A stretch of 53,356 bases of DNA, the filler included, from Jimgerdemannia flammicorona (taxonomy: Eukaryota), in the NCBI GenBank assembly GCA_003990765.1. It is 3 parts of 3 records of this genome, joined end to end, with 100 filler letters (N's around TTAATTAATTAA, not from the genome) between each part and the next. Parts side by side here need not be neighbours in the genome. Positions count along the whole stretch, not along the records: positions 1 to 17,722 come from RBNJ01002440.1; 2 more parts are not named here. One strand, given 5' to 3'. Under the pieces are notes generated by a model. The model saw only the letters and a program-made list of their open reading frames with translations. It did no database searches and was not told where the DNA came from. Below, one piece after another: positions 1-35,643 of the stretch. The position numbers were made by a program, and so were the translations under genes. How positions within the stretch are numbered: position 1 is the stretch's first letter; each line of letters begins with the position of its first letter.

Positions 1-293
1 GAAAAAAAAAAAAAAAAGAGATCAACCAAAAGGAATGAAAATAATTTTACAAGAAAGAGGATTATAGAAAGATAATTTATTAAAAATTTGTCAACTATAT
101 ATTAAAAATAAAAATAAAAAATTTAAGTAATAATTGTTATGCATAAAGAATTTTAGAATTACAACCTAATTTTCTTAATCAAAAGTATATGCTTGAAGAA
201 ATTATTACTGTAGCTGGTCATAAAATTATTTTTTATCCTAAATTTCATTATGAACTTAATTATATTAAAATGTTTTAAAGAGCTGCAAAATTA

Positions 294-1485
294 CTCCTTT
301 CTCTGCTACCTTACCAGTCACAATAGTTTGGTAGACAATCTTCTAAGTCTACTTTCCATAATTATTACCCTCTCTACCTTGGGTTGGTTTGCTGTACCTA
401 TTGCAGAACAGTAGGAGGGAGGCAATGGTGATGAGTTGCCTCTTTATCAGTGTCTGATCAGTATCTTCTTCACTTTTTCACAGTTTCTGATACCTTTGGC
501 TGTATCTGGAGTATATCTATTTTAGTGTGGTACCTTCTTCCTTTTGCCATCACCAATAAGGTATTGTCTTGGTATATCTTAGGCTATATAGGAAGTCAGC
601 TGATCTTAGGCATCAAGTGCTCAGTATAGGTTACCTGCAGGTCCTCAGTGCCTATAGTGGAGCCCTTTGGCTTTGGTGAGCTTTCTGGTGAGCATAGTTC
701 TGACATAGGTAACTGCTTTTCAGGTATTGTTGAGATGGGAGGGGAGATGGCCATTACAGATAGGAGAAAGGGTGATAATAGTAAACCAGTAAGATGCCAG
801 ACTGGGGGTAATCATTGGAACTAAGGTGAGTACTACTTCAGTGGGGCCTTTTGATTAGTGTGGTATAGTTAAGTGATAGGTATCACTCTTGGCTTCTTTT
901 GGTGATTTGGCAGATTGGGCTCTAGTCATCAGGAGGGATCAGAGGGTCTGAGGCTATCCATTTCAGATATCTTGGCTACACTCAACTAGAACTGGGAGCT
1001 GATATGGCAACATAATCAAGGCCTACAGACTTGAGTAGTGGAGTATTGGAGGTCTCCTCCCACCTCATATGTAAGTCCTTTATTTGCCTCAACTGAGAGA
1101 ACTAGGCCCTACCCACTGTGTTGTGCTTTGATGAGGGGTTTTCTTTACCTGTTATTCTCTTTGGAGTGGTAGAGGCTATTCTATTTGGCTCAGGTATGGC
1201 CTTGTATATATATTGGATTCTCGGGCATATACTTTCAGTCATTGGCACATGGCTGAGTTTTCTCTAATGGTAGGGAGAGCATGGTGTGCAGAATGAGGTA
1301 TAGGCTGCCATAGGCTCTGCTATACCTAGTATGGTCAAGCTGCTGGATAATAGCTAGTCTAAGTTAATAGGGGGGCAGTGCTTGATGGGTGGTGGGGGAG
1401 GGTTTTAGCCTATAGTCTAGGTTCTCTTCTAATAAAAATCTGTAAGATATTGAGTCTGTTAAAAAAAAAAAAAAAAAAAAAAAAA
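294..1485 (+). mobile_element. 5'-truncated L1-like non-LTR retrotransposon with poly(A) tail
   Basis: 13-bp TSD AGCTGCAAAATTA at 281-293 and 1486-1498; AATAAA at 1431; A-run from 1461; decayed zf-RVT-like C-terminus WELIWQH...EYWR...YPLCC...FLYLLFS at about 993-1170. Confidence 0.88.
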
Positions 1486-1619
1486 AGCTGCAAAATTATT
1501 TATAAGAGAATATTGTGATTATACTTAGAATGGTTTAAATGAAATTGTTCCTCAAGCTTTAGATAGTATTAAATTATCAACTATTTAAAAATATGCTAGA
1601 AAATCTTTTAGATATATAA

Positions 1620-3187
1620 TGTCACATAGTGGTCACTGAGTCCTTCAAATATACCAGATTCTCTTCAAGATGTATCTCTTAGACTAACTCAAGTTTGTTA
1701 TAAGCAAGTTCTTATTGGAGTACCTTTCCAAGATCTTATAGTTCTCAAACTTCTTATCTTTAAACTGTCTTGTTATCTCTTAGATTGCTTGCAAGGAAGT
1801 GTGTGTATTGTACTGAGAGGAACTGACTTTATTTCAGAGGAAATAAGAGGGGTATTTATACAAAATATAATTTAATGGTTGCTAAGATATAAAGCTAAAT
1901 ATAAATTTCAATAACTAAAACTACTAAGTTCCAGGGTTGGCACTGATGGTTGTACAGGTTCAGAATATTGATATTATTTAGTATTATATCAAAATACCAG
2001 TACTAGAACAATTCTGTGTCACCTCAGAATATCAGTGCTGGTATTATCCAGTGTTACATAAGAATACCAATGCTGGCATTATCCAGTATAACAAAGAACT
2101 TAGAGCAGAAAGTTCAAGATCATGGGGGCTTCATTATCATCATCACTGAAGGAGATGAGATCTGTGAATTCATCATGTAGGTCACATGTTTCATATACTT
2201 TGCATGCTTCATTACGCATCTCGCATATGTCGAAGTCATGTAGGATGATGTCATCGCTGATGACATCATCATGTTCAGTGGCAGGAAAATCGGAAACAAG
2301 ATCTGAAGCTCTCCAGTCTATGAAGGTCTCTTCCACAAAATAGGGGACAAATGTGGGGTCTTGGGGAGATCTAACCTAGATGCTTGGGCCTTAGAATACT
2401 GAGATCAATCCTTGCAGAAATTGGTCTGGATTGTCCTGAAGGATAGAATGCCAGAAGTCTTCTATTTCTTCGCTGTTGAGAGTGATAGTAGACTGGACTT
2501 CTGTAGCCACTCTGGCTTCTAGTATATTGATACGGCGGGATGACAGATCTCTGAAGTCTGAGACTCTAACATACTCCAAGTTGGGGATCAACTATGGTGT
2601 ATACCTGAAGATCTAATAGATCTTCTTAGCTGTCCTTGCTTTGCATATATCCATGAGAGTGGCATCTTATAGCTCTTGGGTGCTGGCCTGTGGGAACTCC
2701 CAGCAGAGAAGGTTTCCTATTTCATACTCCTGTCACATTTGGAGGTATTCGGTAGTAATGGTGATCCTTGTTTCCATTTCATGGTAGTAGAGAATAAAGT
2801 GATAAGGGTCTGCAGTACCCAGGTTGATACTAGGAGTCCTTCTTGAGTAGGTCCCCATGACTCTTCTGATGTCTTAGAACATCTTTTCCTCGACTGGGAT
2901 ATCTTGATGATTCCTTGACCTTGAGGTTTGGCAGGCAGCAGGTATTTCATTTGTGGTAAATCTTTGAGCTATTTTGGGATTGGTGGTTCTTATTGATTAC
3001 TGCTACTGCAGTTCCTTGATTCTTCTTTTATATTCTTTGGGATGCTTATACTGTGGTCACAATGACTCACAGTTAGTCATCATTGCTCATCTTATATGCT
3101 GTAAGATCTTCTTATACTCTAATCTGGTAGCTTGCAAGGAAAGGCTGTCTCCTGTGCTGATGTCATCATTCTGAGGTCACCGTTACA
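1620..3187 (-). mobile_element. Long solo LTR (1568 bp) carrying an internal ORF
   Basis: Termini TGTCAC...GTTACA; 4-bp TSD ATAA (1616-1619, 3188-3191); the interrupted transposase reading continues across it; minus-strand TATAAATACCCC promoter motif at about 1849-1860, as in the paired LTRs of this window. Confidence 0.85.
2100..2945 (-). pseudogene. LTR-borne accessory ORF (about 281 codons, single frame, several premature stops), unknown function
   Basis: (M>I)PAACQTSRSRNHQD...EYLQM*QEYEIGNLL...AKKIY*IFRYTP*LIPNLEYVRVSDFRDLS...FWHSILQDNPDQFL...DEFTDLISFSDDDNEAPMILNFLL. Track ORFs 2391-2591 and 2100-2336 are in this frame; homologous copies at 20349-21193 and 43386-44209. Confidence 0.8.
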
Positions 3188-3901
3188 ATAAATATATATA
3201 ATTAAGGATTAATAGAAAAAAAATAGAATATATAGTAAAAAAATATCATTCTTATCATTGAATTTCTAAATAATAATAAATATATAATAAATAAATTAAT
3301 TAATATCTGCCTTAATTGTCTATGTATGTATGTCTATCTTTTAATTATCTGTCTGTATGATATGTATATAGTTTCATTAGTATTATAAAATTTATATAGT
3401 ATTATAAAATTTATATGATGATTTCCTTTTTAAGATGTATGTGACTGGCGCCATAATCTGACTCAACATAATATAAATTATTTTTTTTAAAATTATATAG
3501 AAATATGAAAAAAAAATTAAATGAAAATTCTGGCTCTATTACATTGTAGTAAATCAATCAAAGAATCATTTTATAGAATTAGATTTTTAATACATATATT
3601 TTTTGTTATGTTCTATTCCTTCAAAGTTTGTCAAAAAATTTTGAGGTTTATAGATGCGCCGCACTGTATTAAGGCTGCGGAAAGATGTTCAATTTTAGCC
3701 CTGATTGGAGGCCCGCGGAAATGTGTGGGCCACAAGGCCGATCACTATGTCGTAGGTGACGTAATCCGCAATTTCTGTTGCGTGTCAAGGTATCGGGCAC
3801 TCCACACTGGCCAGCACTGGGGTTGTGGCCAGGCGCTTAATAATACGACGGACTGAATTAGTATCGCCTCTTTTTTTTTTTTTTTTTTCGTGCTTTATTT
3901 T

Positions 3902-4240
3902 TTAGAATTGTGTCAAACAGTCGGTCAACACCGGAAAGGGTTCGTCACGTGCGTTAACGCTAGTGAGATTTAAATCCACGTGTGCCCTGATCCCTTTCCA
4001 CGCGTTAAAATATGCGAAACCTCCAGCTGTGTCTGACGATATTATCAGGAGAAAGTTAATTGAGTAGGGGAAGGGAGAAAAATCTCTAGTGTCATCGCAA
4101 AAGAATTCAACCAAAGACGGATCCAGGTTGTCGAAATGTAGTAGGAACCCCCACATATCCACATACAGCTTATCCCCCTTTCTATTTCCACACTCTCATA
4201 AAATGCGAATTGTTCATGATATTTGTACAATAACCCTCCA
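3902..4240 (-). pseudogene. Possible terminal exon relic of an unknown gene (frameshifted), followed by AATAAA and an A18 run
   Basis: Track ORFs 4045-4230 and 3902-4162 join with one frameshift; minus-strand AATAAA just after the stop; T-run 3871-3888. No recognisable domain. Confidence 0.3.
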
Positions 4241-4284
4241 CTAACGAAGTGGTTGAGGATGCATGTGCTATATATACAAAATTT

Positions 4285-4811
4285 CTATTCCAAATCGTGG
4301 AATTGAAGTTGAAAGCGAATCAACCGCATGTCGGGGTCCTTCGAATGCCAATACACCGAGGGATTCACCTTTGTAATGATGTGGCCTACACTGAGCCGGC
4401 CCCTATTCACCTCTATCACAAGCTCCAACTTGAATCTTTCGAACTCCGCCTCGGTCTCGTCAAAGCGCTCTTCGACGAAGTCCCAGAATTCTGCCCAGTT
4501 CAGGCGGTCACAGGCGCTGCGCTCCACGGATTTGAGATTTTTCAACATCTCCTTTCGATTCTTACTGGACCCTTTACCGTGGCCGCTACCAGCCTCTCCG
4601 GCTCTGAGTTCGCGAACCGTAAATCAAGAACCACGAAGCTGCCCCAACGTTTTCGATTCTTCACCAGGACGTGATCGTAGATCATCTGGATGAAGCGCAC
4701 TATGAACACACCGTACACTTCCATCATAGGCCTAAGGCGAGATACCTCATCTTCAGGAGGTGCGTAGGACCGACGTTTTGAGGCATGGCGGCGAGAGAAT
4801 ATGTTTCCCAT
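4285..4811 (-). pseudogene. Frameshifted paralog of the orphan N-myristoylation-motif gene at 8771-9304
   Basis: MGNIFSRRHASKRR...; a 7-nt deletion near 4567 relative to the intact copy splits it into track ORFs 4542-4838 and 4285-4548; duplicated TATATAAACC box upstream (about 4851-4890). Confidence 0.85.
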
Positions 4812-6753
4812 GTCAGAGTGTAAAATTAATGGATTCAAGTTGTTTCAGAAGGTTTATATATATATTCAGAAGGTTTATATATATATATATAAAGTTTATT
4901 TGACATTCTAGACTGATGTATGTGTGATGCGATTTATGAGGTCATGGAAAGTATATTTTTCGGAGGAGAACGGGGCGGGTATGTAGCGTAATAATGTGAC
5001 TGCTGCCGAACGAATCATTCCACTTGCCAGGAGAAATGTTACTGCAGCATTCATGACTCGTCCTCTCGACTTATCCGGCCAGGTACATGTTCCAGGGCGT
5101 CGTGAGAGACGGAGGGGAGGTGACGCAGTCCGCTTGACTCTACACGCTGACACAGCGGGAGAGACACTGCAACTCACCCCGTGGGACAATGGCTGCTGGT
5201 TGACACTTGACCCGTGATTTCTCCTTGTGTGGAAAAATAAATAAAAGGCGTCAAAATAAGCGGTTCTGACTTGACCGATGCGAGTGGCGGGTGCCGCACC
5301 CGCCGCGTAAGGGGAGGGGGGCCAGTGTCAAATAAAAGGTTTCGACGGAAGCTCGGGAAAGTACGAACGATGAACACAAAGCACGAAGGACCACCTGAAA
5401 CCTCCCGTTACGTCAGATTTAATGCGCATATCCGCGTCATTGAAGGCAGAAGATATTTCTCGTCATGTGATGGCTCCGTTAATCGAAATGGTTGTTTTCT
5501 ATGACATGAATATATATTTAGACTCACTGTCAGGTTACACCCTACCTAGCTGTAAGCATGTAGCTCAGAGGCATTCATTTTGGAATTTCTTTCGATTTTA
5601 AGTTGATTTCATTCATCTCTGGTGGCAGGCGTATACTTTTGATGTCGCTAGTGGATCCTTTTGGGAAGGCATCGTGGATGACGTTTTTGTAAAAAGTTTC
5701 ATTAAACCATTTAGCATGTTGTCCTTTGAACCTTTCTCATCCTCGGGGTCATTGATCCGCGCGATATGAATGCGGAGTAGTACATTCAAAGATTCATATA
5801 GTTATTCTTTATTTTTTGTGGTGGTTACACACGAAGTGGAGACAGTGAGATGGTGACGTCTCCATGGTGATACCACGATAGTGACGCCCAGGCTCGATAA
5901 TGACGTCACATTCTCAATGGTGACGTTTCAATGGTGACATGAAACGTGCCCCCCCCTTGGGAGAATTGTTTAGAAGGTGATGGTGCAAAAGCATTCTTCA
6001 CCGTCAAAGTCGATTTTTAGGTGTAGCTGCAACTTTACGTAGTATGTATATACGCGTGAATGAAGTCAAAATTCAAAATGAGACGGACGACAAAAAAAAA
6101 AAAAAAAAAAAAAAAGAGCAGAACCCAGATGTCGGCGACTTACATATTCATTCGGTACAATTGACACATTTCCATGAAGAGCGATTGGATTAGTGAGATT
6201 GGCGTGCCATCAACGCTGCCGAGATAACTCGACTTGAAAATCCACGTTGGACACAACTGCGCGCTGTTAGCGATAATGCACTTTGGTGATGGACCCCAAC
6301 GACATTTTGCTCGTTCAACAACTCTAAGCGTACATCAATCCATTTGTTTTTTGAGAAATTCCCGGCTGGCATGCGATCTGGGAGTAAAAAAAGGAAAGCT
6401 CTAATCACAAACCTTTACAACATGTATCTTCCAAAATCACATATAATAGTGGGAAACAGCACTTGAGGGATCAATATGAACACGCCAGGAATTTTATGGG
6501 GAAACCCAGATTTCATTTCTATCAGAGATGCGATGGGTTCGATCCATTCTGACCTTCGGTCTGGTAATCCGTCGTGGTGAACCTCATTTCGAAAATCTAT
6601 GCCGATATCATCGACTGTGCACCACCTTATCGAAACTTACCATTGATCCTTGCAAGACCTAATCACAAACCATCGCTTTATTTTGTTCTTTTATTCATTA
6701 TGCATAGATCATCGTTTTATATTTATTTATTCTAAGACCATGAGGCTCGTTTT

Positions 6754-8293
6754 CTAGTTAGGACAAACGTTCAATCTACTGGTCAGCTCATCCTGCACGG
6801 CACATACCACGCCGTATCTCTTCTGGCGCTCGCACTCGTCGCGGCTATGTCTATCGCTGTCACATCTGAACTCGTCACGATGCTTCTTGAAGGCGATCAG
6901 GACTCCTCGTCTAGGATGTCGCGGAGGCCACCTGTACGTAAAGAGAAGAATTTAGCAGAAATATATTGAACGTAATAAGGATCGCTACGCAGATTCGTAG
7001 ACGGGGCATACGTACCAGAAGTTAAATCAATAACACCAAACTTTACGTACTCGATAGTTTTGGTGAGGTGCCTTCTAAGTGGCCTGCGGTGACGGAACTT
7101 GCCATTACGATCGCGGTCGTCGTCGCGATCCTTCCTATCATCATCGCGACGCTCATCGTCTCGACGCTCGTCTCCGCGTCCAAGCCCCAGAGTGAGCAGA
7201 ACTATCTGCTGTCTACCGTGTTTCCCATCCTCGTCGCGCCACCTCTCCAGCTTCTTGTTCATTTTACGTTCTCGAACCGGATCTCGCGCTCGCCGATCGC
7301 GTCGCCGAGAATACGTATCAGTGGCGTCGGAGCCTGTGAGGCAGTACACGCGGCGGTGGTGGTGCTCGTCCAAGGGGACCCAACGGAAGCCCTGCGAGGT
7401 GCCCTGGCCCTAGGAAACTGCGACTGGGGTCTGGGCTTCGCCTTGAGCACGGCGGTCGTCACAGCCGTTGTCACCGCCGCGGTGGCGGCGAATCAGATGA
7501 TGTAGGTGGCGCGGCAAACGTCGAGGATGTTGACGGGGGGGACGCGACCGTCGCGGCCGGTACTCATCTTGAGGACGTGCTCGTTTTCAATCGCGAGGGC
7601 CCAAAGGAGGAAGTACTGGAATTTGCGCAGCGAGGGAATGGTTAGATGTGTTTGACGTTGACATGTGCGTGAACAGCCTAATGTGAAATGAGAATATATT
7701 ACCTAAAGATATACCACCTCCCCCTGGTAAAGCTGTCCTCGAGGCACCTCTCAAGTTCCCGGAATTCACAGAGATTTCTGAGTTCCCCGTCATTGGCCGC
7801 GGGGCCGATCCTAAAAAGCGAACCGAGGGAACATTAGTGACTAAATCACCATCTCAGTCCGACAGAATATCCTGTTTTTAAGAGCTCACGTGGAAATAAT
7901 GAGGAAACGGCGAACGTTCTCGTGCTCCATAGCATCGATGGCCATGGCGGACCCTGTTGCGAGTCATGTCCAGGACGAAGATGACGTACTCGCAGTTGCG
8001 GAAGGCACGGCGGAGGGACTTGCGGTTTTCGTAGTCATTTTCCTATCCAAGAACATCTACATTAGCATCTAGTAATCATTTATTCGGTCCTCATCAATAA
8101 TCATAAAAAATAATATATATATGCCAATAACACTTACAATGATCTCGGTGCTCAAGTCCTTCAAATTGTCGTGACAGAACAGGACGCAGATGTGGTGTAC
8201 TCGTTGTGATGGTCATGGCCATTGCGCTCGGACTCGCGGAGCAGGTAGGTGGGCGGTGCTGACGCTGGCACTGGGGCTGGCGGAGCGGTTCCA
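6754..8293 (-). pseudogene. NmrA-like / atypical SDR NAD(P)-binding protein pseudogene with Asp/Arg-rich insert
   Basis: Segments EII|ENDYENRKSLRRAFRNCEYVIFV..AIDAMEHENVRRFLIIS, FQYFLLWALAIENEHVLKMSTGRDGRVPPVNILDVCRA, HHHRRVYCLTGS, ILGDAIGEREIRFENV and DLTSG|GLRDILDEE..FKKHRDEFR follow NmrA-family motif order. GT-AG introns at 8043-8137 and 6932-7015 with branch sites; multiple frameshifts. Confidence 0.72.
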
Positions 8294-8684
8294 TTTTTTT
8301 TTTTTTTATGTTGCAGGGGAAAAGGTACCAGCTTTTTACACGACCAAGCCACCTAGACAAAGTCACGTGGTCTTACATCGAGACATAGATTGCGATATCA
8401 CTTATCAAAAAAGAAAAAGAGGGAGCTTTGTAAAACTTTAACTTTAATGTAGAATGTGTGATTGGAAGCTGAACTAGATATCCTAATTCACGTGAAGTGG
8501 CTACCAGTTAAAAATAGTAATATTTCCACGTGAGTCGCTTTGCTAAAGATCTTTAACTTTAAAGTGGAATATGTGATTGGAGGATGAACTAGCCGAACTA
8601 CCCATTTTATTTTCTTTTAACGCCGGCCTATTACAATGAACTCTCTCCGTGGTGATCATGGTTTTACAGCCAAAAAAAACTCGA

Positions 8685-8695
8685 TTATATAAACC
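8685..8695 (+). promoter_or_regulatory. TATA box (TATATAAACC) upstream of the 8771 gene
   Basis: Lies about 80 bp upstream of ATG 8771; the same TATATAAACC motif precedes the inverted paralog. Confidence 0.55.
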
Positions 8696-8770
8696 CTCAA
8701 TTTCCAAAAAAAAAAAAAAAAATTGAGCTCGACTATTTATACGCATTCCTCTCCTTTCAGCCAATCCAAC

Positions 8771-9304
8771 ATGGGGAACATATTTTCTCGTCGTAGTGCC
8801 TCAAAACGTCCGTCCCGCGCACCTCCTGAAGAAAAGGTATCTCGCCTTAGTCCTATGATGGAGGTGTACGGAGTGTTCATAGTGCGCTTCATCCAAATGA
8901 TCCACGACCAAGTCCTGGTGAAGAACAGAAAATGTTGGGGCAGCTTCGTGGTTGATTTGCGGTTCCCGAACTCGGAGCCGGAGAGGCTGGTGGCAGTCAC
9001 AGCAAAAGGTCCCACGGACAGTAAGAATCGAAAGGAGATGTTGGCAAAGCTCAAATCCGTGGAACGCAGGGCCTGTGGCCGTCTGAACTGGGCAACCTTT
9101 TGGGACTTCGTCGAAGAGCGCTTTGACCAAACGGAGGAAGAGTTGGAAAGATTCAAGCTAGAACTCATGACAAAGGTGAATAGGGGACAGCTCAGTATCG
9201 AACACATTGTTACAAAGGCGAATCCCTCGGTGTACTGGCCTTCGAAGGACCCCGACATGCGCTTGATTCGCTTTCAGCTCCATTTTCAACCAATTCATCC
9301 ATGA
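8771..9304 (+). CDS. Intact intronless 177-aa hypothetical protein with N-myristoylation motif and polybasic N-terminus
   Basis: MGNIFSRRSASKRPSR fits MGxxxS; conserved along its full length with the paralog at 4285-4811; CpG retained; TATA box upstream. Confidence 0.8.
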   Translation: MGNIFSRRSASKRPSRAPPEEKVSRLSPMMEVYGVFIVRFIQMIHDQVLVKNRKCWGSFVVDLRFPNSEPERLVAVTAKGPTDSKNRKEMLAKLKSVERRACGRLNWATFWDFVEERFDQTEEELERFKLELMTKVNRGQLSIEHIVTKANPSVYWPSKDPDMRLIRFQLHFQPIHP

Positions 9305-10973
9305 GTACAAACAACATTATAAACAATACACTATTCCAATATGTCTAAGCTTATATACTGTTCGACCATGCCGTACCAATATCTTTCGGTATTCCGGTGT
9401 TTCCTATGTAGTGAATTCAAGGTGCTCGATCGAGTCAAAAAATATGCCGTAAATCGCAATATGTCAAAACCATGTAAAATTAGAATTATCTTTTGTATTT
9501 ATTTTATGACATTTTAATATATGGTTATGGCTAATATTAAAATATGCAACTCTCGTGTGAATTAATATTCTGTATTTTTCAAGAGGGTGTCAGGTATGTC
9601 ATGAATATGACTCAGAGTGATGAGTTTATGAGCCTACAGGGTTTAAGATAGGGGTAGTTGCATGACAGGTATTAAAGCTTGGACTTTGGAGAAGGATGTC
9701 GGTTTTAGAAGAGAATGGCTGAACGAACTATTCAGATCTAGGTCCGTGCACGACTTTAGCACAGTGTCCAGCCAAATGGTATCTTGTCCAAACAGCGAAT
9801 TGTTGATGGGCGATTCTGCCGAACGGGCCTTAAACAGTGCTAATCTAACACAATTAAGAAGTGAATATCAAACTCAGCAATTACAAGCAAACATTCAAAT
9901 CAATAACTAATTTGATTCCATTCACACCACGTGCGTGCTCGCGGGACCGCCGACTACCTCTACGCTCTTGTCAAAAAGAATGAGCCCGGTATGCAATCTC
10001 TGAGCCCGAGTCCAAGACTGAACGAAGGCGTGCAGCTATGACGGCCTACGGCGCATGAGTGTAATTACAATAAATGCGCAATCATGCCGGCGAGAGAGAT
10101 CCATATGTGAGCGGGATCTTTTTGGTTACTCTGAAAATAAATGACATAAAACTTAGTCATTTCCACCATGTCCGACAGCCTGGAACGGCGGGACGTCAAT
10201 CGTTTACTTGGAAATTTTAAAATGACAATCTATTGTATATACGTAAGTCTTAGTGCTTTGATCGATCGAGATTGTGTGACGTTATCAGAGTAGACGCCAC
10301 CGTCGAGACTAGTTTAGTGTATATACGTTCGCTAGTCAGTTCCGTCCACCAGCCATCGTTCAGTCCTCATTTGTTCGTCCAGTTTATGCATACTAGACTG
10401 TTTATCGTTTGCTCTTCGCTCGTCCAGTCGACGTTTGCTCGTCTAGTCTACAGTCGCTCTTGCTCGCCCATTGCTTGGCCGTCCATCGTTCTCTTAGTAG
10501 TCCACGTTTGCTTGTCCGGACCACGCTCGCTAATGAATTTCTTTTCCTAACCACCCCTTCACTTCAACCCGCCGATTAGCAACGTCATATCGTGTGCAAA
10601 ATCTCTCATGTTCATGTGTCGTCCCTTTCCGGATTTCCTGCATAGAAACAGCGAGTTTGGTCATAGGAAATGATGTCGTTTGTGCCTTGTGGTTCAAGCG
10701 TTGCCACCGACCAACCGAGACCACAAGATATATAAATAGCGGCGAGCTACGGGAAGGCGATCAAGGAACGAATCTTCGTTTTGGAATTCGATCTATTTTT
10801 AAATGTGATTCAGGTATACGGTGAAAATGTCTGTGCTGAGAAATGTTTATTTATTTATTTATTTATTTTATGTGATTGGACGACCACGGAATGGACGTCT
10901 CGGATCGATCGGTCGGGACGTCTCAATCAAGGCGATGCCTAAATCAAATGTCATTATTATACAATGGTGAACT

Positions 10974-10975
<2 letters not shown>

Positions 10976-11010
<35 letters not shown>

Positions 11011-11011
11011 A
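10976..11011 (+). mobile_element. Poly(A)-only retroposed insertion
   Basis: A33GAA flanked by a perfect 17-bp duplication ATACAATGGTGAACTGC (10959-10975, 11012-11028). Confidence 0.75.
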
Positions 11012-11226
11012 ATACAATGGTGAACTGCGACCATTGACAGAACGACGATCGGCAGAACGAACTGCATTTCTATAAGATCGTCCCGATAGTGATATTGAGA
11101 CCGTGACGTCCCGTTCAGGGGACTATTTTAGGGGGAGGACTACCCCATACTGATGTATGGGCTATAAATCTCGATTAGATATGGATTTACAACTCGTTAT
11201 CAATGTAATATATACAAAGCGTGTGT

Positions 11227-11315
11227 AAATTGCTTTCCGCAAACCTGTTGGTTAGCTTGCACCCCAGCCATAAAAATTGCTTTCCGCAAAACTGTTGGTT
11301 AGCTTGCACCCCAGC
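11227..11315. repeat. Direct duplication of a 42-bp unit
   Basis: AAATTGCTTTCCGCAAA(C/A)CTGTTGGTTAGCTTGCACCCCAGC at 11227 and 11274. Confidence 0.85.
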
Positions 11316-11984
11316 ACAAAATGAAGGATGGAGTATCACAACGCATAGTGACTAGTATAGTGCACCACGCCTATAATCATCTACTTCCTTTTAAAAATTC
11401 TATTTCTAAACAATGAACTTATTAAAAAAATATATAACTTTACAGGTTAACAAACAACCCTTTTTATTTTATTCCTATAGAGAGCTTTTTTATTATTTCT
11501 TTTTATATTTATAATAATTGTTTTTTTTAAAAAAAAATATTTCTCAAATCCGCAGAATTTGTGGCTTAGAGTTATATCATGTGACTTTGTTTGTTTCATT
11601 TTATCTCCACTTCCACGCCTATACTCGATGATTTTTAACTCCTCCTTTAAATTGCTATTTTTTTATAATAACAAAATTATATATATATATATATATATAT
11701 ATTGAAAGATAAATAGCATGGCTTCAATGCTATGGAAAGTTTTTTTTAATTTTGTCATATTTATAGTCAGTAATAGCTGTTTGAAATTTTACTTAAGTGT
11801 TTTTTTAACTTCAATTCCTCTATAATGGTTGTATAAAAAAATTATATAATGATATATATTAATCCAAAATCTTTCTAGTATTAAAGCTATAGAGAGTTTT
11901 TTTTAAAAAATATTAGCAGAAACCACAAGCTTCTGCCAATGATCCTCTATCAAGATTTTACCAATGTGGTTCTCTATCAGCAAG

Positions 11985-13090
11985 CCTCCATCAATGAGAA
12001 TTCAGCAGCAACGAACCTCCATCAATGAGAATTTAGCAGCGACTAACCTCCATTGACTATACACAGAAGTTGCACATAATGGAGTGGGCCGTCGATTACT
12101 CTAATGGAGGCGGGTGATTGCTGCGGGCGGTCAATTGCTCTTAGAGAGGCAGGCGGTCGATTGCTCTAATCAAGGCATGTGGCCAATTGCTCTAATGGAG
12201 GTGGGCGGTCAAATGCTCTAATAGAGGCGGGCAGTTGATTGCTCTAATGGAGCAGGTGGTCGATTGTTCTAATGGAGCGGATGGTCGATTGCTCTAATGG
12301 AGCAGGCTGATTGCTCTGTCTCTCATCGATCGAGCCATCAACATTTTCATGTAATGGGGCTCTGACACAGCCGCCTACATCCTCAAGCACAAGTACATGG
12401 AAGCCGGGGTCTCCTTCAATAATCTAAATGAAAAGCTCATGCCCGAAGATGAATTAGAAGGAGGTGAGCCTGATGATGAGGAAATCAAAGTGACGGGAAA
12501 TGAGTCGATTGCTCTAATAGAGTGGGCGGTTGATTGTTTTAATGGAGCAGTGGTTGATTACTCTAATGGAGGTGGGTGGGCTGCAGGCAGTCAATTGCTC
12601 TAAGGGAGGCAGGTAGTCGATTGCTCTAATGGAGGTGGGCAGTCGATTGCTCTAATGGAGGTGGGAGGTCCATTGTTCTAATGGAGGTGGGCGGTCGATT
12701 GCTCTAATGGAGTAGGCAGTCAATTGCTCTAATAGAGTGGACCTATCTCATCGATTGAGCTGTTGACATTTTCACATACTGGGGCCCAGCCCCCTATGGA
12801 AGCCGGGGTCTCCTGGACAGGCTTAATGAGGAGCTCATGCCCGAAGATGCATTGGAGGAGGCAAGCCTGATAGTGAGGAAATCGAGGTGACAGGAAACGA
12901 GCCGATTGCTCTAATGGAGTGGGTGGTTGATTGCTTCGGGCAGTTGCTGTGAGCAGTCGTTTGCTCAAAGAGAGGCGGGTGGTCGATTGCTTTAAAAGAG
13001 GTGGGTGGTCGGTTGCTCTAATAGAGGCAGGTGGTCGATTTCTCTAATAGAGGGGGCAATCGATTACCCATGCTAATGGAAATGGAGTGG
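11985..13090 (+). repeat. Minisatellite array (about 24-26-bp unit GTCGATTGCTCTAATGGAGGCGGGCG) with an approximately 400-bp higher-order repeat
   Basis: Many degenerate copies; spacer block ATGGAAGCCGGGGTCTCC...GCTCATGCCCGAAGATG repeated at about 12397 and 12796. Confidence 0.85.
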
Positions 13091-13356
13091 GCCGATTCTA
13101 CACAGCCAGGGCCAAAAGAAATTTTAGCCTGCATCCTTTTGGGGGCTGATAGAAAAACAGAGTCGATGGCGACGTTCTCCTGTGGGATTTCAGCGAAGTG
13201 CTCCAACGTCAGGTCTGTCGGGTAGAACTTGTTAGCATGGTCGTCGTCCTTGACAAGATTGAGCAGGCACACCCCAGACAGCATCATTTCGAGAGGAGCC
13301 ACTTCGTCACCAGGTCCTCTCACTTGGTGCCGGTGACCTGGCCTGACACTGCTGGC

Positions 13357-13785
13357 CTCTGCCGAAATCCCCTATGCCGAAGTCTCCTCTGCTGAAGTCC
13401 CCTCTCTTGCTGAAGTCCCCTCTGCTAAAGTCCTAGTCGCCACGAAGGAAATCGAGTACCCTTCGGCAGAGAGGACTTCAGCAGAGGGACTTTGGTAGGG
13501 GATTTCGGCAAAGGGAACTTCAGCAGAGAGAACTTTGGCAGAGGGAACTTTGGCAGAGGGGACTTCGGCAGATGAAACTTCGGCAGAGGGAACTTCGACA
13601 GTGGGGATTTCAGCACAGGGGACTTCAGCAGAGGGAACTTCGGCAGTGAGGACTTCGGCAGAGGGACTTTGGTAGAGGAGACTTCAGCAGAGGAAAGGTG
13701 ACTTCGGCAGAGGGGACTTCGGCAGAGGGGACTTTGGCAAAGGAGACTTCAGTAGAGGGGACTTTGGCAGAGGAGACTTTGATAG
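13357..13785. repeat. Foldback-arranged 15-bp minisatellite (GGGGACTTCGGCAGA and its reverse complement)
   Basis: TCTGCTGAAGTCCCC-type copies at 13357-13433 face more than 15 GGGACTTCGGCAGA-type copies at 13462-13785. Confidence 0.85.
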
Positions 13786-14544
13786 AGTATGATATTTTTA
13801 TTTTATTTTATAACATATAAATTATATTTTATAAGAAATTTCTCAGTTTGTGTAAAGCATTTGTACTTCTAGTATGATATGGTAATTGGTCAAGATGATA
13901 CATTCGGGCTTCATGTATAGAACTTATTTTCAATTTTTTATAGATTTTAGATTCTTTCCTTTGCCAGATATATATATATACATTTCTGGATTTTCAAAGT
14001 TTGCGAATGAGTGCTCGTTCACTTGATACATTAGCGATATTATTGATCAGAGGTATTTCGATTATTCATGAGCTCTATTTTAATGTTCATAATGTTGGAC
14101 AAGTTAGAATATTGACTGATAATTTATCAGAAGCATCTAGGGGTTATGACAAGAATGTTGACGCCATCTAGGCTCAGAGGGCTCTTTCCGAAGAAAGATG
14201 TTGAGATGTTTGTTGGGCAGATGTGGTTCCCATTCCTTTTTTTTTTTTTTCCATATTTATCTTATTCTTGGGCTTACTTTGTAAGCATCTCTTTTTGAGA
14301 CTCACCCCCAAATTCCTATGAATTAAACCACCATCTTTTTTTACTAAATAAATTACAATTGATCATGCATGGGTCTCAACATTTTTCTCATTTCCATCTC
14401 GCTCCCCTCCCCTGCCTGCTCCCACTCCCGCTCCCTCGCCCTTCCTGCTTCCTCGCCCTTCTGCCTTACGGTCCCAACAGCTACTTTGAATAGATCAGAA
14501 AGCATAAAAGTCAGAATGATGGAAAACTAGTCATCAGTTCCGGT

Positions 14545-15000
14545 GCCGGCGGCGTTGGTATCATTGGCGCCGTTAGTGCCGTTGGCAGCATTGGTAGGTG
14601 GCATTGGTACCGTTGGACCGTTGGCGGCATTGGCGGCGTTGGTACCGTTGGCGGCATTGGTACCATTGGCGGCGTTGGTACCATTGGCGCCGTTGGCGAC
14701 GTTATTACCGTTGGAGCCGTTGGAGCCGTTGGAGCCGTTGGTACCGTTGGAGCCGTTGGTACCGTTGGCGCCATTGATACCGTTGGCGCCATTGGTACCA
14801 TTGGCGCCGTGGTACCGTTGGTGCCGTTGGTACCATTGGCGCCGTTGGTACCATTGGCGCCATTGGTACCGTTGGCGCCATCGGTACTGTTGACACCATT
14901 GGCAGCACTGGCGCTGCTGGCGCTGCTGACAATGCTGGTGATGTTGGCGGCGATGGCGGCGCTGGAAGTGCTGGAGGCGCTGGAGGCGCTGGTGGTGTTG
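14545..15000 (-). repeat. 9-bp tandem repeat (CCAACGGTA/CCAATGGCG), Pro-x-x coding on the minus strand
   Basis: Long run of CCGTTGGCG/CCGTTGGTA/CCATTGGCG units giving [10 protein letters not shown]. Confidence 0.9.
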
Positions 15001-15488
15001 GTGAACTCGAGTCATGTTTGTTTAGAAACAGATAATCCCATGACACATCTTTAAGCCACCACCACACCCATCCGACTGGGGAAAAAACACCCCTTAGCCT
15101 AATTTAACCCATACTTCCACTATAGTCTGGTGCAGTAGTGTCCTCTCCACCCTGAATTCAGCCGCGAGCAATTCCATGATATCAACATACCTGTTCTCAG
15201 TGGCTCGGTGCATCTATCGTTGGTCCTTGGCCTGCTGGTATCCGCACTACGAACAGTCCCACCGACCTGACATACCTTCAGTGGCTCGGTACATCTATGT
15301 CATGAGCTTCCCATCATCGGACTGTACACAGATGCCATTATGACAACCAGTCATTTGGCAAATCTCCAAAATGCAACCTCCGAACCCACACATTGCACAG
15401 GTTATTCCGTTAATTGAGCCAATTCGATAACCTTATGAGGGGAAGGAGAAGGAGGAGAGGGGAGTTAAATGCCATGTTAGTTTCGAAT

Positions 15489-15872
15489 GTCAAATTGACT
15501 GAGGACAATAAAATCGGCACGAGATAATATTTGCAGTTCAATGGAATGAGGCTTAAGAACACCTGTCAAATTGACTGGAGTTCACTTCAAATCCAATTAC
15601 AAATTGCCATCTGTCAAATTGACTGATGGGCAATGAAATCGGTACAAAATAATATTGCAGTTCAATAGGATGAGATATATGAACCTCTGTCAAATTGACT
15701 GAGGACAATAAGAATGGAACCAACACTATAAAATCATCATGCGAAGTGTATGAAACACTTGTCAAATTGACTAGAGTTTCACCTCTGTCCACAATTTAGA
15801 CAGAATCTCACTATGGCTTCTGTCAGATTGACTGAAGGCAATAAGATGGTCATATAGCAATGTCAAATTGAC
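15489..15872. repeat. Seven spaced copies of the near-palindrome GTCAA-A-TTGAC
   Basis: Starts at 15489, 15565, 15613, 15689, 15761, 15822 (GTCAGATTGAC) and 15862. Confidence 0.85.
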
Positions 15873-16409
15873 TCTGCCAACCTTGATGATTGAAACCCTT
15901 TTTTTTAAAAAAAAGAGAGAGAGAGATTAAGAACCTTATTATCATCTTTGTAGCATGGGGGTTTGACCTCAGTCTTCCTTCGTTTATGACTTTTTTGCCG
16001 TCTGCTTTGTCCTCACCATTCTGTTCAGTAAAATCAAAAAAGGTCAGCAAAGGGGTGGAGGGAGTGCATCCAGAAACGAACTGCGAATGATTACATGAAC
16101 AGACTGAGCAGACCGGAATGTGTGAAGGAAGAAAAAGAGAGAAACGCGTTCTTGTTGCCAGTCCAAAACGGTCGTACGTGTCAAAAAGCAGTCATTGCTG
16201 TTTGGACAGCTATGACTGCTTATTCGGTGGCTTGGATGGAGATCACCGTGAAAAGTAATAAAGACTGTATATTTTCCTAAGCCTTTTCCGATTGCTACAA
16301 ATTCCTATCTTTAATCCCTAATTTTCTTATTGAATTTCTGAAGTTCTGTCGTCACCCTGTAATTATCATCTGATAACCTTAAATACCATTAACCATTACA
16401 AATTCGCCG

Positions 16410-16785
16410 CGAGAATTCAGCAGTGACGAACCTCTCCTTCGACAGCCTCAATGAGGAGCTCGTGTCTGAAGATAAATTGGAAGGGTTGATTGCTTTAATG
16501 GAGCGGGCGGTCGATTACTCTAATGGAGATGGCAGTTGCTGCAGACGGTCGATTGGGAGGCAGGCAGTCGATTGCTCTAATGGAGGCAGGCGGTCAATTG
16601 CTCTAATGGAGGACCTGGGCTCGATCAATGAGAGACAGAGTAATCAGCCTGCGATTGACTGCCAGCTCCATTAGAGCAATCGACTCTATTAGAGCAATTG
16701 ACTGCCTGCCTCTATTAGAACAATCGACTGCCTGCCTCCGATAGAGCAATCGATCACCCGCCTCCCTTAGAGCAATCGACCACCC
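16410..16785. repeat. Second copy of the GTCGATTGCTCTAATGGAG array, switching to inverted orientation
   Basis: Shares the GAGAATTCAGCAG..ACGAACCTC lead-in with about 11996; forward units about 16485-16610, reverse units (CTCCATTAGAGCAATCGAC) about 16665-16785. Confidence 0.8.
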
Positions 16786-16989
16786 AGAGGGCGACATTGA
16801 AATTTGGTATATATATATATATATATATATGCCAATAAAAATATCAAGAACTGCAAAGTTCAGTTTCGATGAGAATTCAGTAGCAATTGGATTGCCAACA
16901 TAAAATTTAGCTGTCGGACTTAGAAATAATTGATTTGTGTCAAAATGTGTCAGCATTAACCTACACCCTAGCCCCAATTACAACAAATT

Positions 16990-17722
16990 CCTTGGGATTC
17001 AGCCTATGCACCCACTCTCCTATCACTTGACATGGAGTGCGCTCGCCTCGCACAACCTAAAACTTCCAAACCCCGCCATCTTGATTCCCTACTTGCACGG
17101 CTCACTTCGCTCGACAACCTCAGTGAATCGGTAGCAGAAATCATCCATCGCCTCAAGCTCCAGTTCCCAGATCCGCGCCAAACCTTCAGGCTCATCTCTC
17201 TCAACTCATCTGGTTCCCCACCGAAAAATTCACCAACATTGACTTTATTGGTGAAGGCGGGTTCGCCAAGTTTACAAAGGAACTGTCGCTGACAACGAGG
17301 GCCGCGATGCATTTTGCACTCAAAGAGTTGAAGCAAGGAATGGAATTCGAAGCTCTCGCTCGTTGCAATTTTAGCTTGTAAATAATTGATCTTTAATTTT
17401 ACAAATAACGTCTCTTTCATATGCACAGCTTGCCCTCAACACTTACCTGACGACCAATGGCCAAGGTTCCCTGACTGCCCCCTCCTTGACCCTTCTCAAC
17501 ATCCTACAACCTACGCCTACCTAATGGTCTTTGCTTTCACACACTATAGCACGCTCGAAACTCCTCCCGCGCACCAAACAACCGACTGGTTGCAAATCGC
17601 GCACAAGTCCACGCTCCTCGCCTCGATCTCCATCACTTTGGCTACAGCCACCACGACCTCCACCCCGGCAATGTGATGTACGTTCAGCAAGACACGCCGG
17701 TTCCGATCGACGTCGGAATTTC
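16990..17722 (+). pseudogene. Protein kinase (TKL-like expanded fungal family) pseudogene, truncated by the assembly gap
   Basis: LIWFPTEKFTNIDFIGEGGFAK.YKGT (Gly loop), FALKELK (VAIK lysine), acceptor near 17428, YLMV, HHDLHPGNVM (catalytic loop), IDVGIS (DFG equivalent); several frameshifts. Confidence 0.85.
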
Positions 17723-17822
17723 NNNNNNNNNNNNNNNNNNNNNNNNNNNNNNNNNNNNNNNNNNNNTTAATTAATTAANNNNNNNNNNNNNNNNNNNNNN
17801 NNNNNNNNNNNNNNNNNNNNNN
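17723..17822. other. Assembly gap with artificial TTAATTAATTAA linker
   Basis: 44 N, 12-mer with stops in all frames, 44 N; identical construct at 35544-35643. Confidence 0.97.
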
Positions 17823-23280: not shown

Positions 23281-26200
23281 GTTACTTGGACTCCGCCATT
23301 TATTACCCATCTATTAATAAAGTTATAGTTTATCCTCTCACTATCTGATCCCCATAGGAGTACCACTCCTCCTACTTACACAAACAAAGACCACTTTCTC
23401 ACCCACAACCCCAACCCTCCCCCCACTCTGTCTACAGATTTGTTCTACCAAATGATGCCTTCGACCCCCCTTCAACCCCCAACCAAGCCACCAGCCCATC
23501 AAGGTGTCTTCCATAAGGCTATGCCATCTCATCAGCCTGACCTCGGAGCCAAGTTTCCTCTCATCCTCAAAAACAAATAACTAGTGACTGGCCAGCCCCA
23601 CCCAAATGGCCAAAGCCCATCCTAATATCAGCCATTCCTTCCTCACCCCCCCCTCCAGTCTGCCCCTTAAATCCTCCCAATGCTCCCACACATCAGCTCC
23701 CCTACACACTACTCCCAGATGATCCCAAATGTTCTGCCAAAAGGTACTAAGAACCTCACACTCTCCTAGCCAATGTTCAGACATCTGTACATATCCCCCT
23801 TCCTGCCCTACATTATAACACTCTTTACAGTCAAAGCAGCCTCCCTCAATAAGGTGACCGGAGCAGAAGTTGAGCATGACATTTCACCTCAGCACATGCC
23901 ACCAGACCACCCAGTACTTCAGTGGCAACCACCTCCTCACCTTGGCACTCCAGGCCCATATGCTATACCAGTCCCACTCCTTGCTGATTCCTACACCCTG
24001 CCAACTGCTAGGCCACAGATCCTGGCCTGGTCCCTATTGGCATTCAATCCCATCACCAATATCAAACTCAAGTAAGGGAATGCCACCTAGTAACACTCAG
24101 TCCCATCTCCACATTGCTAGGTCCCAAGCCTTCTCTCCTTCATTTCCCTGCCACCTAATTCCAATGTGACGTGCCCCCTCTGCCACTCTCTACCAAAAGC
24201 CTTTGTACTGTAACTGTCCAGAGTTCTGAAGGCCCACAAGTGCTAGGAGATCACTCATCAAACCCCTTGGAGAGGACCTCATCTCCCAGACTTTCTGCAG
24301 TAGGGGAACCCAATCACCCCCTCTCAACTCCACTGCTCTCTTCAGCTATGAAGCTCTCAAGCAGTGCAGCCTCTTAGGAAAGTTGACCAGCCCAAGTCCC
24401 CCACTTGCCACCAGTAAGGACAGGACCTCCCAGTTGATCTGACTCTGCCTTCCAGCCCAGATCCACCCCTTGGCCAACTTCATCAATCACTTCACCACCC
24501 AAGCTGGGAAGTCCAGATGATAAGCCAGATACCACACCTTCGGCAGCCAATAGACATTCAGAATTGAAATGCATCCTACCAGAGACAATTGATGGCCCCC
24601 CCAACTCCACAGGGTCTCCTCCCAAATGCCAACCTATTGCTCCCACCAAAGTCTGGGCAGAACCGACCTATATACTGACAGATAGATACCCAAGTACCAT
24701 ACCACCTCACCAGCAGGGACAATTGCACCAATAATCTCCCTGCCCACTGGACCATTGTCTAACACCATTGTTTTGCACTTATGCCAATTAAGCCTAGCCT
24801 CAGAATTCATCTCATACCACTCCACTGTCTCCTTGAGCTTCTCAACATCTGCAACTGATCCCAGACTGACCGCTATGTCATCTGCAAATGCCCCTACTTT
24901 CCACAAGATGCCAAAGATAGAGAGCCCCACTATCTTCTGCCTGTTTCCATCCATGAAGGGCTCCAGAGACAAAGCATACAAAATGGGAGACAGTGGGTCC
25001 CCCTGGGGCACCCCCCTGTCCAGGAGAAATGCTACCTCTTTATGTCCATTACACATGAGTGCCACCCTACTTCCTTCTAGTAGGCTGACCATAGCAGTCC
25101 TGAACTGTCATGGGACTCCAATCTTATCCAAAACTTTCGCCAACCAGATCTGTCACACTTGGTCATAGGCCTTCTCCTGGTCCAAAGCACCCCTTCAATA
25201 ACACCATGTACCCATGCTATGCCATCCCTGATGAGCCAGCTCCAACAAAGCCCCACTGCTCCTCACCTAAGACTTTCTGGGCCACATTTTGCAACCTTGC
25301 GACCACCACTTTGGTAACCAACTTTCGGTCCATATCCAGTAGCATAATTGGCCTCCAGTTCTTCCAGTCCTCTTGGCTTCCTTTGTTCTTATAAAGCAAT
25401 CTCCCCATCTGTAGAATCCAATCACACAGTGCCATCATCTCTCCCACTATTCCAGGGACTCCCACCATCCTTTTCCAGAAGTCCCAGGGCAGACCATCCT
25501 CTCCAGGTACCATACCCAAGGTTGTTGTGGCAAGAACCTGGTAGATCTCCTCCTCTAGCACTGGTGGTACTAAGTCATCCAACCCAGCTGCTCAGGTAGG
25601 GTGCCAATCCTCTAAAGCTCAATCAATGTCCTCAGCACCTGCCCCACCCTCCTCCTCACTCCACAATCCACTCTAATGCTCTTTAACAATTCAAGAATAT
25701 CTTGTACCCCATGTACCAATGAACCATTGGCATTAAGCACCCCCTCCCACCTTTGCTGCACTCTTCTCGCCTGAAGGGCCCTTGTAAGAAACTTTGAGGG
25801 TTGCTCTCCTTCCTCCAGCCCCTGCCAACGAAGCTGTGCTGCCAGACCCTGGACCCTTGCCTCTTCCTCATTCCACAGCACCTGTTGTAGTTCAGCCACC
25901 TCTATTCATAACCTTATCAATCGCCAGTCCTTCTCTCCCTCCAATATCACCAGTCTTGCCCAGTCCTCCAAGAGTCTAGATAGTCTATGAGATGCCCACC
26001 ACACCTGCCACCTCCTCTGTCTCCCTGCCTCCATAACAGCCTCACTCCAGAAGGCCCTGGCCATCTCCTTCATTCTCATCCACTGAATATCAACTGTGAC
26101 ACCTTCCTGCCTCCAGTACTCCACCTGCATTTGAATGACTTTGGCCCATTTACCTCACCAAATCTTATCATCTAGTAGGGAGGAATTGAGATGCCAATGT

Positions 26201-35543: not shown

Positions 35544-35643
35544 NNNNNNNNNNNNNNNNNNNNNNNNNNNNNNNNNNNNNNNNNNNNTTAATTAATTAAN
35601 NNNNNNNNNNNNNNNNNNNNNNNNNNNNNNNNNNNNNNNNNNN
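35544..35643. other. Assembly gap with artificial TTAATTAATTAA linker
   Basis: Same construct as 17723-17822. Confidence 0.97.

Follow-up and report, generated by a model that had tools for sequence, protein, structure and literature searches.

How is a stretch of DNA to be explained in which a near-copy of the start of histone H3 lies upstream of a Cys-rich, finger-like segment on the same strand, with no histone fold after it? The question was raised by a locus at about 16043-15094 (minus strand) of a 53,356-nucleotide (nt) stretch of DNA from Jimgerdemannia flammicorona (GenBank assembly GCA_003990765.1), called the window below. The window consists of three contigs separated by linkers, in which 44 N stand on either side of TTAATTAATTAA, at positions 17723-17822 and 35544-35643, and the locus lies on contig 1 (positions 1-17722, from RBNJ01002440.1). 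The contigs were joined artificially, so that neighbourhood across the linkers means nothing. An earlier, sequence-only reading had described the locus as a histone H3-tail mimic followed by an ADD/PHD-like finger, and had suggested a chromatin reader fused to a mimic of its own ligand. From the comparisons described here, the locus is very probably a dead member of a small gene family that encodes a tail and a finger, a family so far seen, in the sequences searched, only in Endogonales fungi.

The tail, the finger exon remnant and their relatives

Positions 16019-15984 of the minus strand read ATG GTG AGG ACA AAG CAG ACG GCA AAA AAG TCA TAA, which translates to MVRTKQTAKKS and a stop. As had been claimed for 16019-15987, 9 of these 11 residues are identical to the H3 start MARTKQTARKS. 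With residue frequencies taken from the six frames of the window itself, the expected number of positions with at least nine matches to the H3 11-mer was 5.4e-6 in the window; the tail was the sole position in the whole window with at least six. A stop in the same frame lies 8 codons upstream of the tail ATG, which is therefore the earliest possible start of this short frame. One base 5' of the ATG, a pyrimidine-rich stretch (16021-16045, minus strand) ends in CAG. The splice acceptor proposed earlier for this place was thus found again as to its pyrimidines and its CAG, and is kept as a candidate acceptor read from the sequence. No histone fold follows the tail, again as claimed, there being no Pfam match of any kind at E≤10 in the three forward frames of 16019-15433.

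The Cys pattern first read in the window, C-x2-C-x9-C-x4-C-x4-C-x2-S-x19-W-x-C-x2-C, was found exactly as written at 15399-15244 of the minus strand, in a frame other than that of the tail and with two TAG stops inside it. The finger exon remnant that contains it (15244-15431, minus strand) was delimited by tblastn and BLASTP alignments to two of the relatives described below, P0007 and P0010. P0007 aligned with window positions 15423-15316 at 21 of 36 identical residues (tblastn, E 8e-12), and the finger remnant is for this reason not a chance pattern. P0010 aligned with the same finger at 15/35 (tblastn, E 6e-9), and the remnant read through its stops, P0001, was identical to P0007 at 35 of 100 residues (BLASTP, pairwise E 1e-14). 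Downstream, 15094-15243 (minus strand) is collinear in these alignments with the region that follows the finger in P0010 and P0007, and includes a weak ankyrin-like stretch at 15213-15154.

The window copy makes nothing. The tail frame holds five stops before 15935, the first directly after the tail; the frame of the finger exon (15432-15094) holds TAG at codons 46, 62 and 73 (15297-15295, 15249-15247 and 15216-15214, minus strand); and the Cys that is the conserved sixth ligand in the relatives is lost. On these three grounds the copy is dead, as had been concluded before. One detail of that earlier conclusion was wrong. The Ser of the pattern had been taken for a replaced ligand Cys; the relatives have Asn at this position, and the conserved Cys, which stands 4-5 residues later, is the one that the window copy lacks.

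Relatives were sought with P0001 by phmmer against 1.84 billion representatives, at E≤1e-3. Eight proteins were obtained, and P0007 alone covers the finger. P0002, P0005 and P0006 are ankyrin-repeat proteins, whose strong phmmer E values come from one stretch of 20-26 residues matched repeatedly (for one of them, E 7.7e-14 is the sum of eight target repeats laid on that single stretch). P0003, P0004, P0008 and P0009 are unrelated repeat proteins, judged by eye to be spurious. An ankyrin reading of 15213-15154 was rejected: Pfam Ank gave no match, five high-scoring segment pairs on 15222-15145 had E values of 0.15-0.81 (tblastn), and the likeness is confined to the same single stretch of 20-26 residues.

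P0007 is a hypothetical protein of 125 residues from the Joint Genome Institute (JGI), the model of which begins just before the finger and has no tail. Searching with P0007 led to P0010 (65% identical, E 3e-46; 2 proteins among 3 candidates), the hypothetical protein BC936DRAFT_142116 of Jimgerdemannia flammicorona (197 residues, NCBI). A profile search added P0011 (3 proteins among 985 candidates), which is BC936DRAFT_142894 of the same species, a fragment of 82 residues in which one ligand Cys is replaced by Tyr. No longer relative of P0007 qualified among 24 candidates, and no relative was present among 96 (alignment A1) and 258 (P0007) pattern matches in metagenome contigs or among the 5 in viral contigs. 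The known copies are thus four: the window copy, P0007, P0010 and P0011.

A homolog joining both segments, which had been proposed as a check, was found in P0010. Its single gene model reads MPRPSTITEHL-MARTKQTTKKSTFGLAGRGSLK, then a Ser/Thr/Pro-rich linker, then the finger; MARTKQTTKKS occupies residues 12-22 and the finger about 88-134. Residues 12-33 were identical to H3 chain positions 1-22 at 14 of 22 positions, Met included (PDB sequence search), and of the 51 matches of P0010 to all PDB sequences at E≤10, 49 were histone H3 tails. Of the H3 tail, P0010 retains residues 1-6 and 9-11; it has K in place of R8, and other residues in place of K14 and K18. By its sequence, the P0010 tail is derived from the N-terminal tail of H3, roughly H3 residues 1-21. 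The likeness to H3 ends there; P0010 gave no Pfam match, whether to a histone fold or to anything else, and in lacking the fold both it and the window copy differ from H3.

Because P0010 carries both parts in one model, tail and finger belong together, and it is likely that they are co-translated in intact members. Two diverged loci, that of the window and that of P0010, show the same arrangement, with the tail 5' of the finger on one strand, and in both tails R8 has become K. The window tail agrees with P0010 residues 12-22 at 9 of 11 positions, and the longer stretch 15987-16043 (minus strand) with residues 4-22 at 11 of 19 (tblastn; local alignment z 5.5 against 100 shuffles). In tblastn, then, the two tails were 9/11 identical and the two finger cores 15/35; for the linkers, none of the frames gave any similarity (z against shuffles, -1.4 to 1.2). 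A likeness by eye between the P0010 linker and a shifted frame after the window tail was discarded, its z being at most 1.2 and not significant. By our own arithmetic, the chance of at least 9/11 at p = 0.43 is about 0.01. With tails so much more alike than finger cores and linkers, the tail appears to have been under stronger constraint than the rest of the gene.

The finger and its proposed ligand

The candidate ligands of the finger in P0010 and P0007 are arranged as C-x2-C-x9-C-x4-C-x4-C-x7/8-C-x10-C-x2-H, eight in all, the eighth being His. The W-x-C-x2-C with which the window pattern ends corresponds to W-[LI]-C-P-x-H in the family. All eight candidate ligands, with a Gly and a Trp, are kept between P0010 and P0007. 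A PHD finger has eight zinc ligands in cross-brace order, classically C4-H-C3; the family has eight candidates, of which the fifth, the sixth and the last depart from this scheme in kind or position. The Trp that is conserved in PHD fingers two residues before the seventh ligand, in a loop rich in P and G that holds the H3 N-terminus, is present in the family. When P0007 was compared with PDB sequences, all three matches were PHD fingers: KDM5A (a chain of 59 residues, E 0.24), PHF21A, also named BHC80 (E 0.86), and KDM5A again (E 2.1). The best non-histone match of P0010 in the PDB (one of two) was the PHD domain of ATXR5 (E 0.87). These PHD alignments span the whole finger and bring ligands 1, 2, 4, 5 and 7 and the segment P-x-[VI]-x-x-G-x-W-x-C-P into register. 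Its G-x-W-x-C-P is aligned in ATXR5, KDM5A and PHF21A alike, and the G and W are invariant in all four family sequences. We therefore consider it probable, though not certain, that this is a divergent PHD finger belonging to the readers of unmodified H3, and a PHD fold is, on these alignments, somewhat favoured.

The sequence-only reading had likened the spacing to the PHD part of ADD domains. In the ADD domains of DNMT3 and ATRX, a GATA-like C4 finger stands directly before the PHD part. This PHD part is an all-Cys finger that reads the H3 tail, and its spacing is similar to the C-x2-C-x9-C-x4-C-x4-C of the family; the family differs in that no GATA-like cluster precedes the finger, that Pfam ADD gives no match and that the sixth ligand is never at x2. 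One Cys occurs in P0010 before the finger (residues 1-87) and none in P0007. Since no GATA-like second Cys cluster precedes it, the finger is, as judged from these sequences, not an ADD. Of the earlier ADD/PHD assignment, the PHD part survived, weakly (PDB matches at E 0.24-2.1), and the ADD part did not; Pfam matched neither.

The nearest solved fingers are readers of the H3 N-terminus. The PHD finger of ATXR5 reportedly reads unmodified K4. In the available part of PMC4225485, PHD1 of KDM5B is described as holding the free amine of H3 A1 by the carbonyls of the P and G of the segment aligned above, with A1 packed on its W, and as reading A1, R2, T3, K4 and T6 while R8 is uncontacted; the same portion of that source presents BHC80 as a reader of H3K4me0. 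Binding of unmodified H3 by KDM5A PHD1 is stated in the part of PMC6327041 that was available. The positions read by KDM5B PHD1 (A1, R2, T3, K4 and T6) are those kept in the tail of the tail and finger family, and the G and W with which KDM5B holds A1 are invariant in its finger. PHD1 of KDM5A and KDM5B and the finger of PHF21A/BHC80 (PDB 7klo, 2puy) share with the family the start C-x2-C-G-x-G and, in register, the end P-x-[VI]-x-x-G-x-W-x-C-P. They differ from it in the sixth ligand, which in the family comes 7-8 residues after the fifth and not 2, in the fifth, which is Cys in the family, and in the last, which is His. Unlike P0010, none of the fingers of KDM5A, KDM5B and PHF21A has an H3 tail on its own chain.

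Two described cases of histone mimicry come nearest. PAF15 (PCLAF), like the window copy, has an N-terminal H3 mimic, Met followed by VRTK; with VRTK at the free N-terminus it binds the PHD finger of UHRF1 with a dissociation constant of 2.2 uM, as against 1.5 uM for H3, according to the available part of PMC7060239. The Val at position 2 of the window tail is therefore compatible with PHD binding. As far as that portion of the paper goes, PAF15 acts in trans on the PHD finger of another protein, whereas P0010 has a finger on the same chain, and its detailed likeness to H3 concerns VRTK, whereas P0010 agrees with H3 at 14/22. In BAZ2B, as the available part of PMC5663869 describes it, a histone-like stretch on the same chain lowers the affinity of the PHD finger for H3; the stretch described there is an internal, lysine-rich linker acting electrostatically; it does not repeat the H3 N-terminus almost unchanged, nor does it stand at the start of its own chain. 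No published fusion of an H3 tail with a PHD finger was found described in the open-access literature and bioRxiv.

An intact member of the tail and finger family, similar to P0010, would thus be a protein of about 200 residues with an H3-derived tail, a Ser/Thr/Pro-rich linker and a divergent PHD-like finger. The finger would belong to those PHD fingers that hold H3 by its free, unmethylated N-terminus, and the protein's own tail would serve as its built-in pseudo-ligand. The tail would cap the finger in cis, or bind the finger of the next molecule in a head-to-tail chain, or be a competitor of nucleosomal H3. We regard this mechanism, taken by itself, as doubtful.

The intervening sequence and the surroundings of the locus

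The window tail and the first finger codon that could be aligned are 563 nt apart, and the spacer probably holds an intron, to judge from its splice-like signals. The candidate intron (15432-15967, minus strand) has as its donor either GAG/GTCAAA (GT at 15967) or AAG/GTTCTT (GT at 15934) and as its acceptor the AG at 15433-15432. The 3' splice region (15432-15481, minus strand) comprises ACTAAC (15481-15476), a pyrimidine tract some 28 nt long and this AG, 45 nt past the branch A; ACTAAC is of the fungal branch-point consensus type. The first exon would be of 52 nt (GT 15967) or 85 nt (GT 15934), both of which leave a remainder of 1 when divided by 3, and either candidate donor, spliced to the AG at 15433-15432, joins the tail frame to the finger frame. 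From the first codon 3' of this AG onwards, the sequence resembles P0010 and P0007.

Within the spacer lie seven copies of CAGTCAATTTGACA (15488-15874, minus strand), the core of which is the inverted repeat GTCAA-N-TTGAC. The copies are 40-76 nt apart and form units of about 124 nt, identical at 83.5% over 91 nt. The whole window holds eight copies, seven of them between tail and finger; 0.67 were expected, and none of 100 shuffles reached 8. In six of the seven copies the flanks differ between copies and are yet complementary, so that the hairpin is lengthened. Flanks that vary and stay complementary suggest selection for a hairpin or for a symmetric binding site. A site for a dimeric protein and structured intronic repeats are the candidates for the array.

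In the finger exon, a direct repeat of about 30 nt (15298-15270 and 15217-15185; whole feature 15185-15298, minus strand) has its two arms 81 nt apart and one indel of 4 nt. Its score of 46 compares with a mean of 17.4 (standard deviation 3.3, maximum 34) in shuffles, it was recovered also as a repeat family (D5) in the window, and it points to a small duplication. Repeat-induced point mutation (RIP) was considered as the source of the stops and rejected, as the indices at the locus (TpA/ApT 0.59; (CpA+TpG)/(ApC+GpT) 1.49) do not fit it.

The window gave no evidence of the association with a transposon that had been suggested earlier as a possibility. No second copy of 14000-16440 occurs in the window, and the reverse transcriptase, RNase H and integrase domains all lie on contigs 2 and 3. 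The locus is flanked by arrays of a 26-nt satellite that are inverted to each other (12947-13052 against 16684-16789) but belong to a larger satellite. The 26-nt satellite (GGAGGCAGGCAGTCGATTGCTCTAAT-like) forms arrays at 12077-13107 and 16496-16790 that are part of units some 400 nt long; one array, at 16666-16790, runs opposite to the rest and forms long imperfect inverted repeats around the locus. Rfam gave seven matches in 13000-17722, all below the gathering scores, and none in 15000-16100; on the satellite arrays they were sub-threshold, microRNA-like matches only. Two tandem arrays (13356-13779 and 14548-15001) lie just downstream of the gene remnant, one with a 15-nt unit in about 21 copies, the other with a 9/18-nt unit in about 19-30 copies that encodes Gly/Ala/Asn/Thr repeats in one frame.

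Elsewhere on contig 1, an open frame at 17127-17381 (plus strand) contains IGEGGFAKF and then ALKEL, which by eye resemble the start of a protein kinase; it has no Pfam match, and the contig ends soon after. The open frames 8693-9304 (plus strand; 203 codons from stop to stop, beginning MGNIFSRR) and 4285-4623 (minus strand) are two diverged copies in opposite orientation, with sub-threshold Pfam matches only. On contigs 2 and 3, retroelement fragments were located at 24634-25107, 40495-40977, 41290-41664 and 51227-52309, with Pfam matches to RVT_1 (E 3.6e-12 and 4.6e-22), RT_RNaseH_2 (E 2.2e-15) and Integrase_H2C2 (E 9.4e-14). Two related long open frames, 33262-34782 and 45816-47459, had no Pfam match. 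The observed/expected ratio of CpG is 0.85 on contig 1; contigs 2 and 3, which are rich in retroelements, have 0.20 and 0.14, together with an excess of TpG/CpA. The low values fit a loss of methylated CpG from repeats better than they fit RIP.

Weighing the explanations

Taken as a whole, the reading of the locus as a dead copy of a family with an H3-derived tail and a PHD-type finger, in which the protein's own tail is the pseudo-ligand, is possible and somewhat short of probable; the sequence evidence for it is coherent though thin. Improbable, on our estimate, is its most specific form: a free N-terminal H3 tail gained by exon capture and joined to a PHD finger reading unmethylated H3K4 would cap itself or polymerize head to tail and open on modification of K4 or T3, or else would act as a selfish decoy, titrating the H3-tail machinery of its host, in a genome that is rich in repeats and, as its CpG depletion suggests, methylates them. 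Several findings weigh against a protein bound by its own tail, and they are given below beside the rival explanations. One of them concerns the tail directly: the P0010 model has 11 residues ahead of MARTKQ and, should its start be real, the N-terminus of the tail would be buried.

The best placed rival holds the family to be chimeric debris without function. By duplication, or through a mobile element that captures fragments, the 5' end of one gene, for H3, would have become fused to a piece of another, of PHD type, and the copies would have spread and decayed, P0010 being the least damaged. We hold this to be somewhat unlikely, and it is nevertheless a serious rival, since two of the four known copies are clearly damaged (the dead window copy, and P0011 with its Cys-to-Tyr change) and the P0007 model has no tail, as would fit a decaying family without function. 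The four copies come apparently from one fungal lineage, with no other relative among the 1.84 billion representatives or in word-indexed searches. The locus lies amid satellites and low-complexity repeats, and its CpG observed/expected ratio is 0.48, against 0.85 for its contig. Decay without function sits poorly with a tail far better kept than the linker, though the fingers are only 43% identical, and with the retention of the eight candidate ligands, the G and the W from P0010 to P0007. The window, besides, yielded no transposase, no locus-specific pair of terminal repeats and no second copy.

A rival judged unlikely is that the Cys-rich segment is some other metal-binding or disulfide-rich module, its likeness to PHD arising from Cys and Gly composition. 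Much of the evidence against a self-bound PHD finger is of this kind. Neither PHD (PF00628) nor ADD of Pfam gave a match at E≤10 for the window remnant, P0010 or P0007, in searches whose HMMER filters drop most matches above E ~0.1. The spacing is irregular: compared with the classical PHD finger, Cys takes the place of His as the fifth ligand, and the sixth lies 4-5 residues away from its usual position. The PHD matches in the PDB are all insignificant (E 0.24-2.1), and a phospholipase A2 homolog (E 4.7) is among the matches of P0010. A three-member profile, A3, matched formate dehydrogenase chains in 11 of 11 cases, at their Cys-rich start (E 1.1), and no PHD finger; a profile that included the window copy, A1, matched nothing in the PDB. 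Structure prediction was of no help, the AlphaFold2 models (mean predicted local distance difference test scores 32.5 and 30.6) being unusable for the fold, and the ESM Atlas model having a predicted template-modelling (TM) score of 0.30 and structure matches all of TM < 0.3. Against another module stands the fact that P0010 and P0007, searched separately, both found PHD fingers as their best non-histone matches, over the whole finger including G-x-W-x-C-P, whereas the formate dehydrogenase alignment covers the first half only and leaves the later Cys unplaced.

Rather less credence is given to a tail that acts in trans, as a decoy or pseudo-substrate for the enzymes and readers of the H3 N-terminus or as a basic targeting or import tail, while the finger targets DNA (possibly the palindromic 14-mers) or a protein. 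The conserved palindrome array inside the gene could be its site, and conservation covers H3 residues 1-11 but not K14 and K18. With K instead of R8 the context of K9 is altered, which speaks against this reading, as K9 methyltransferases reportedly need R8; moreover, the nearest solved relatives of the finger are H3-tail readers and not DNA binders. That an N-terminal H3-like peptide can work in trans is exemplified by PAF15 on the UHRF1 PHD finger, in the part of PMC7060239 that was available.

Finally, that tail and finger are mere neighbours that were never one protein, P0010 being a wrongly joined model and what is left of a first H3 exon lying beside a separate finger gene, is very unlikely: P0010 is indeed an automatic model, the P0007 model starts just before the finger, and the window parts lie in different frames with a stop right after the tail, yet order and strand are alike in two diverged loci, both tails carry the derived R8-to-K change, no histone fold follows the window tail, and the candidate splice sites restore the frame. 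Two reservations on co-translation nevertheless count against a tail bound by its own finger. The evidence for it consists of that one automatic gene model, at the protein level only, and the phase-compatible GT sites in the window (2 of 6) are no better than chance, neither donor being strong.

Histone mimicry is known in two forms, as short peptides acting in trans (PAF15 on UHRF1) and as loosely histone-like linkers acting in cis (BAZ2B). If true, the reading of the locus as a member of a family whose H3-derived tail is bound by its own PHD-type finger would provide a natural model for the auto-inhibition of chromatin readers, and would mean that a histone tail can move to a non-histone protein by exon shuffling. 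If the family is instead decaying debris, it would serve as a warning for gene annotation in Endogonales genomes.

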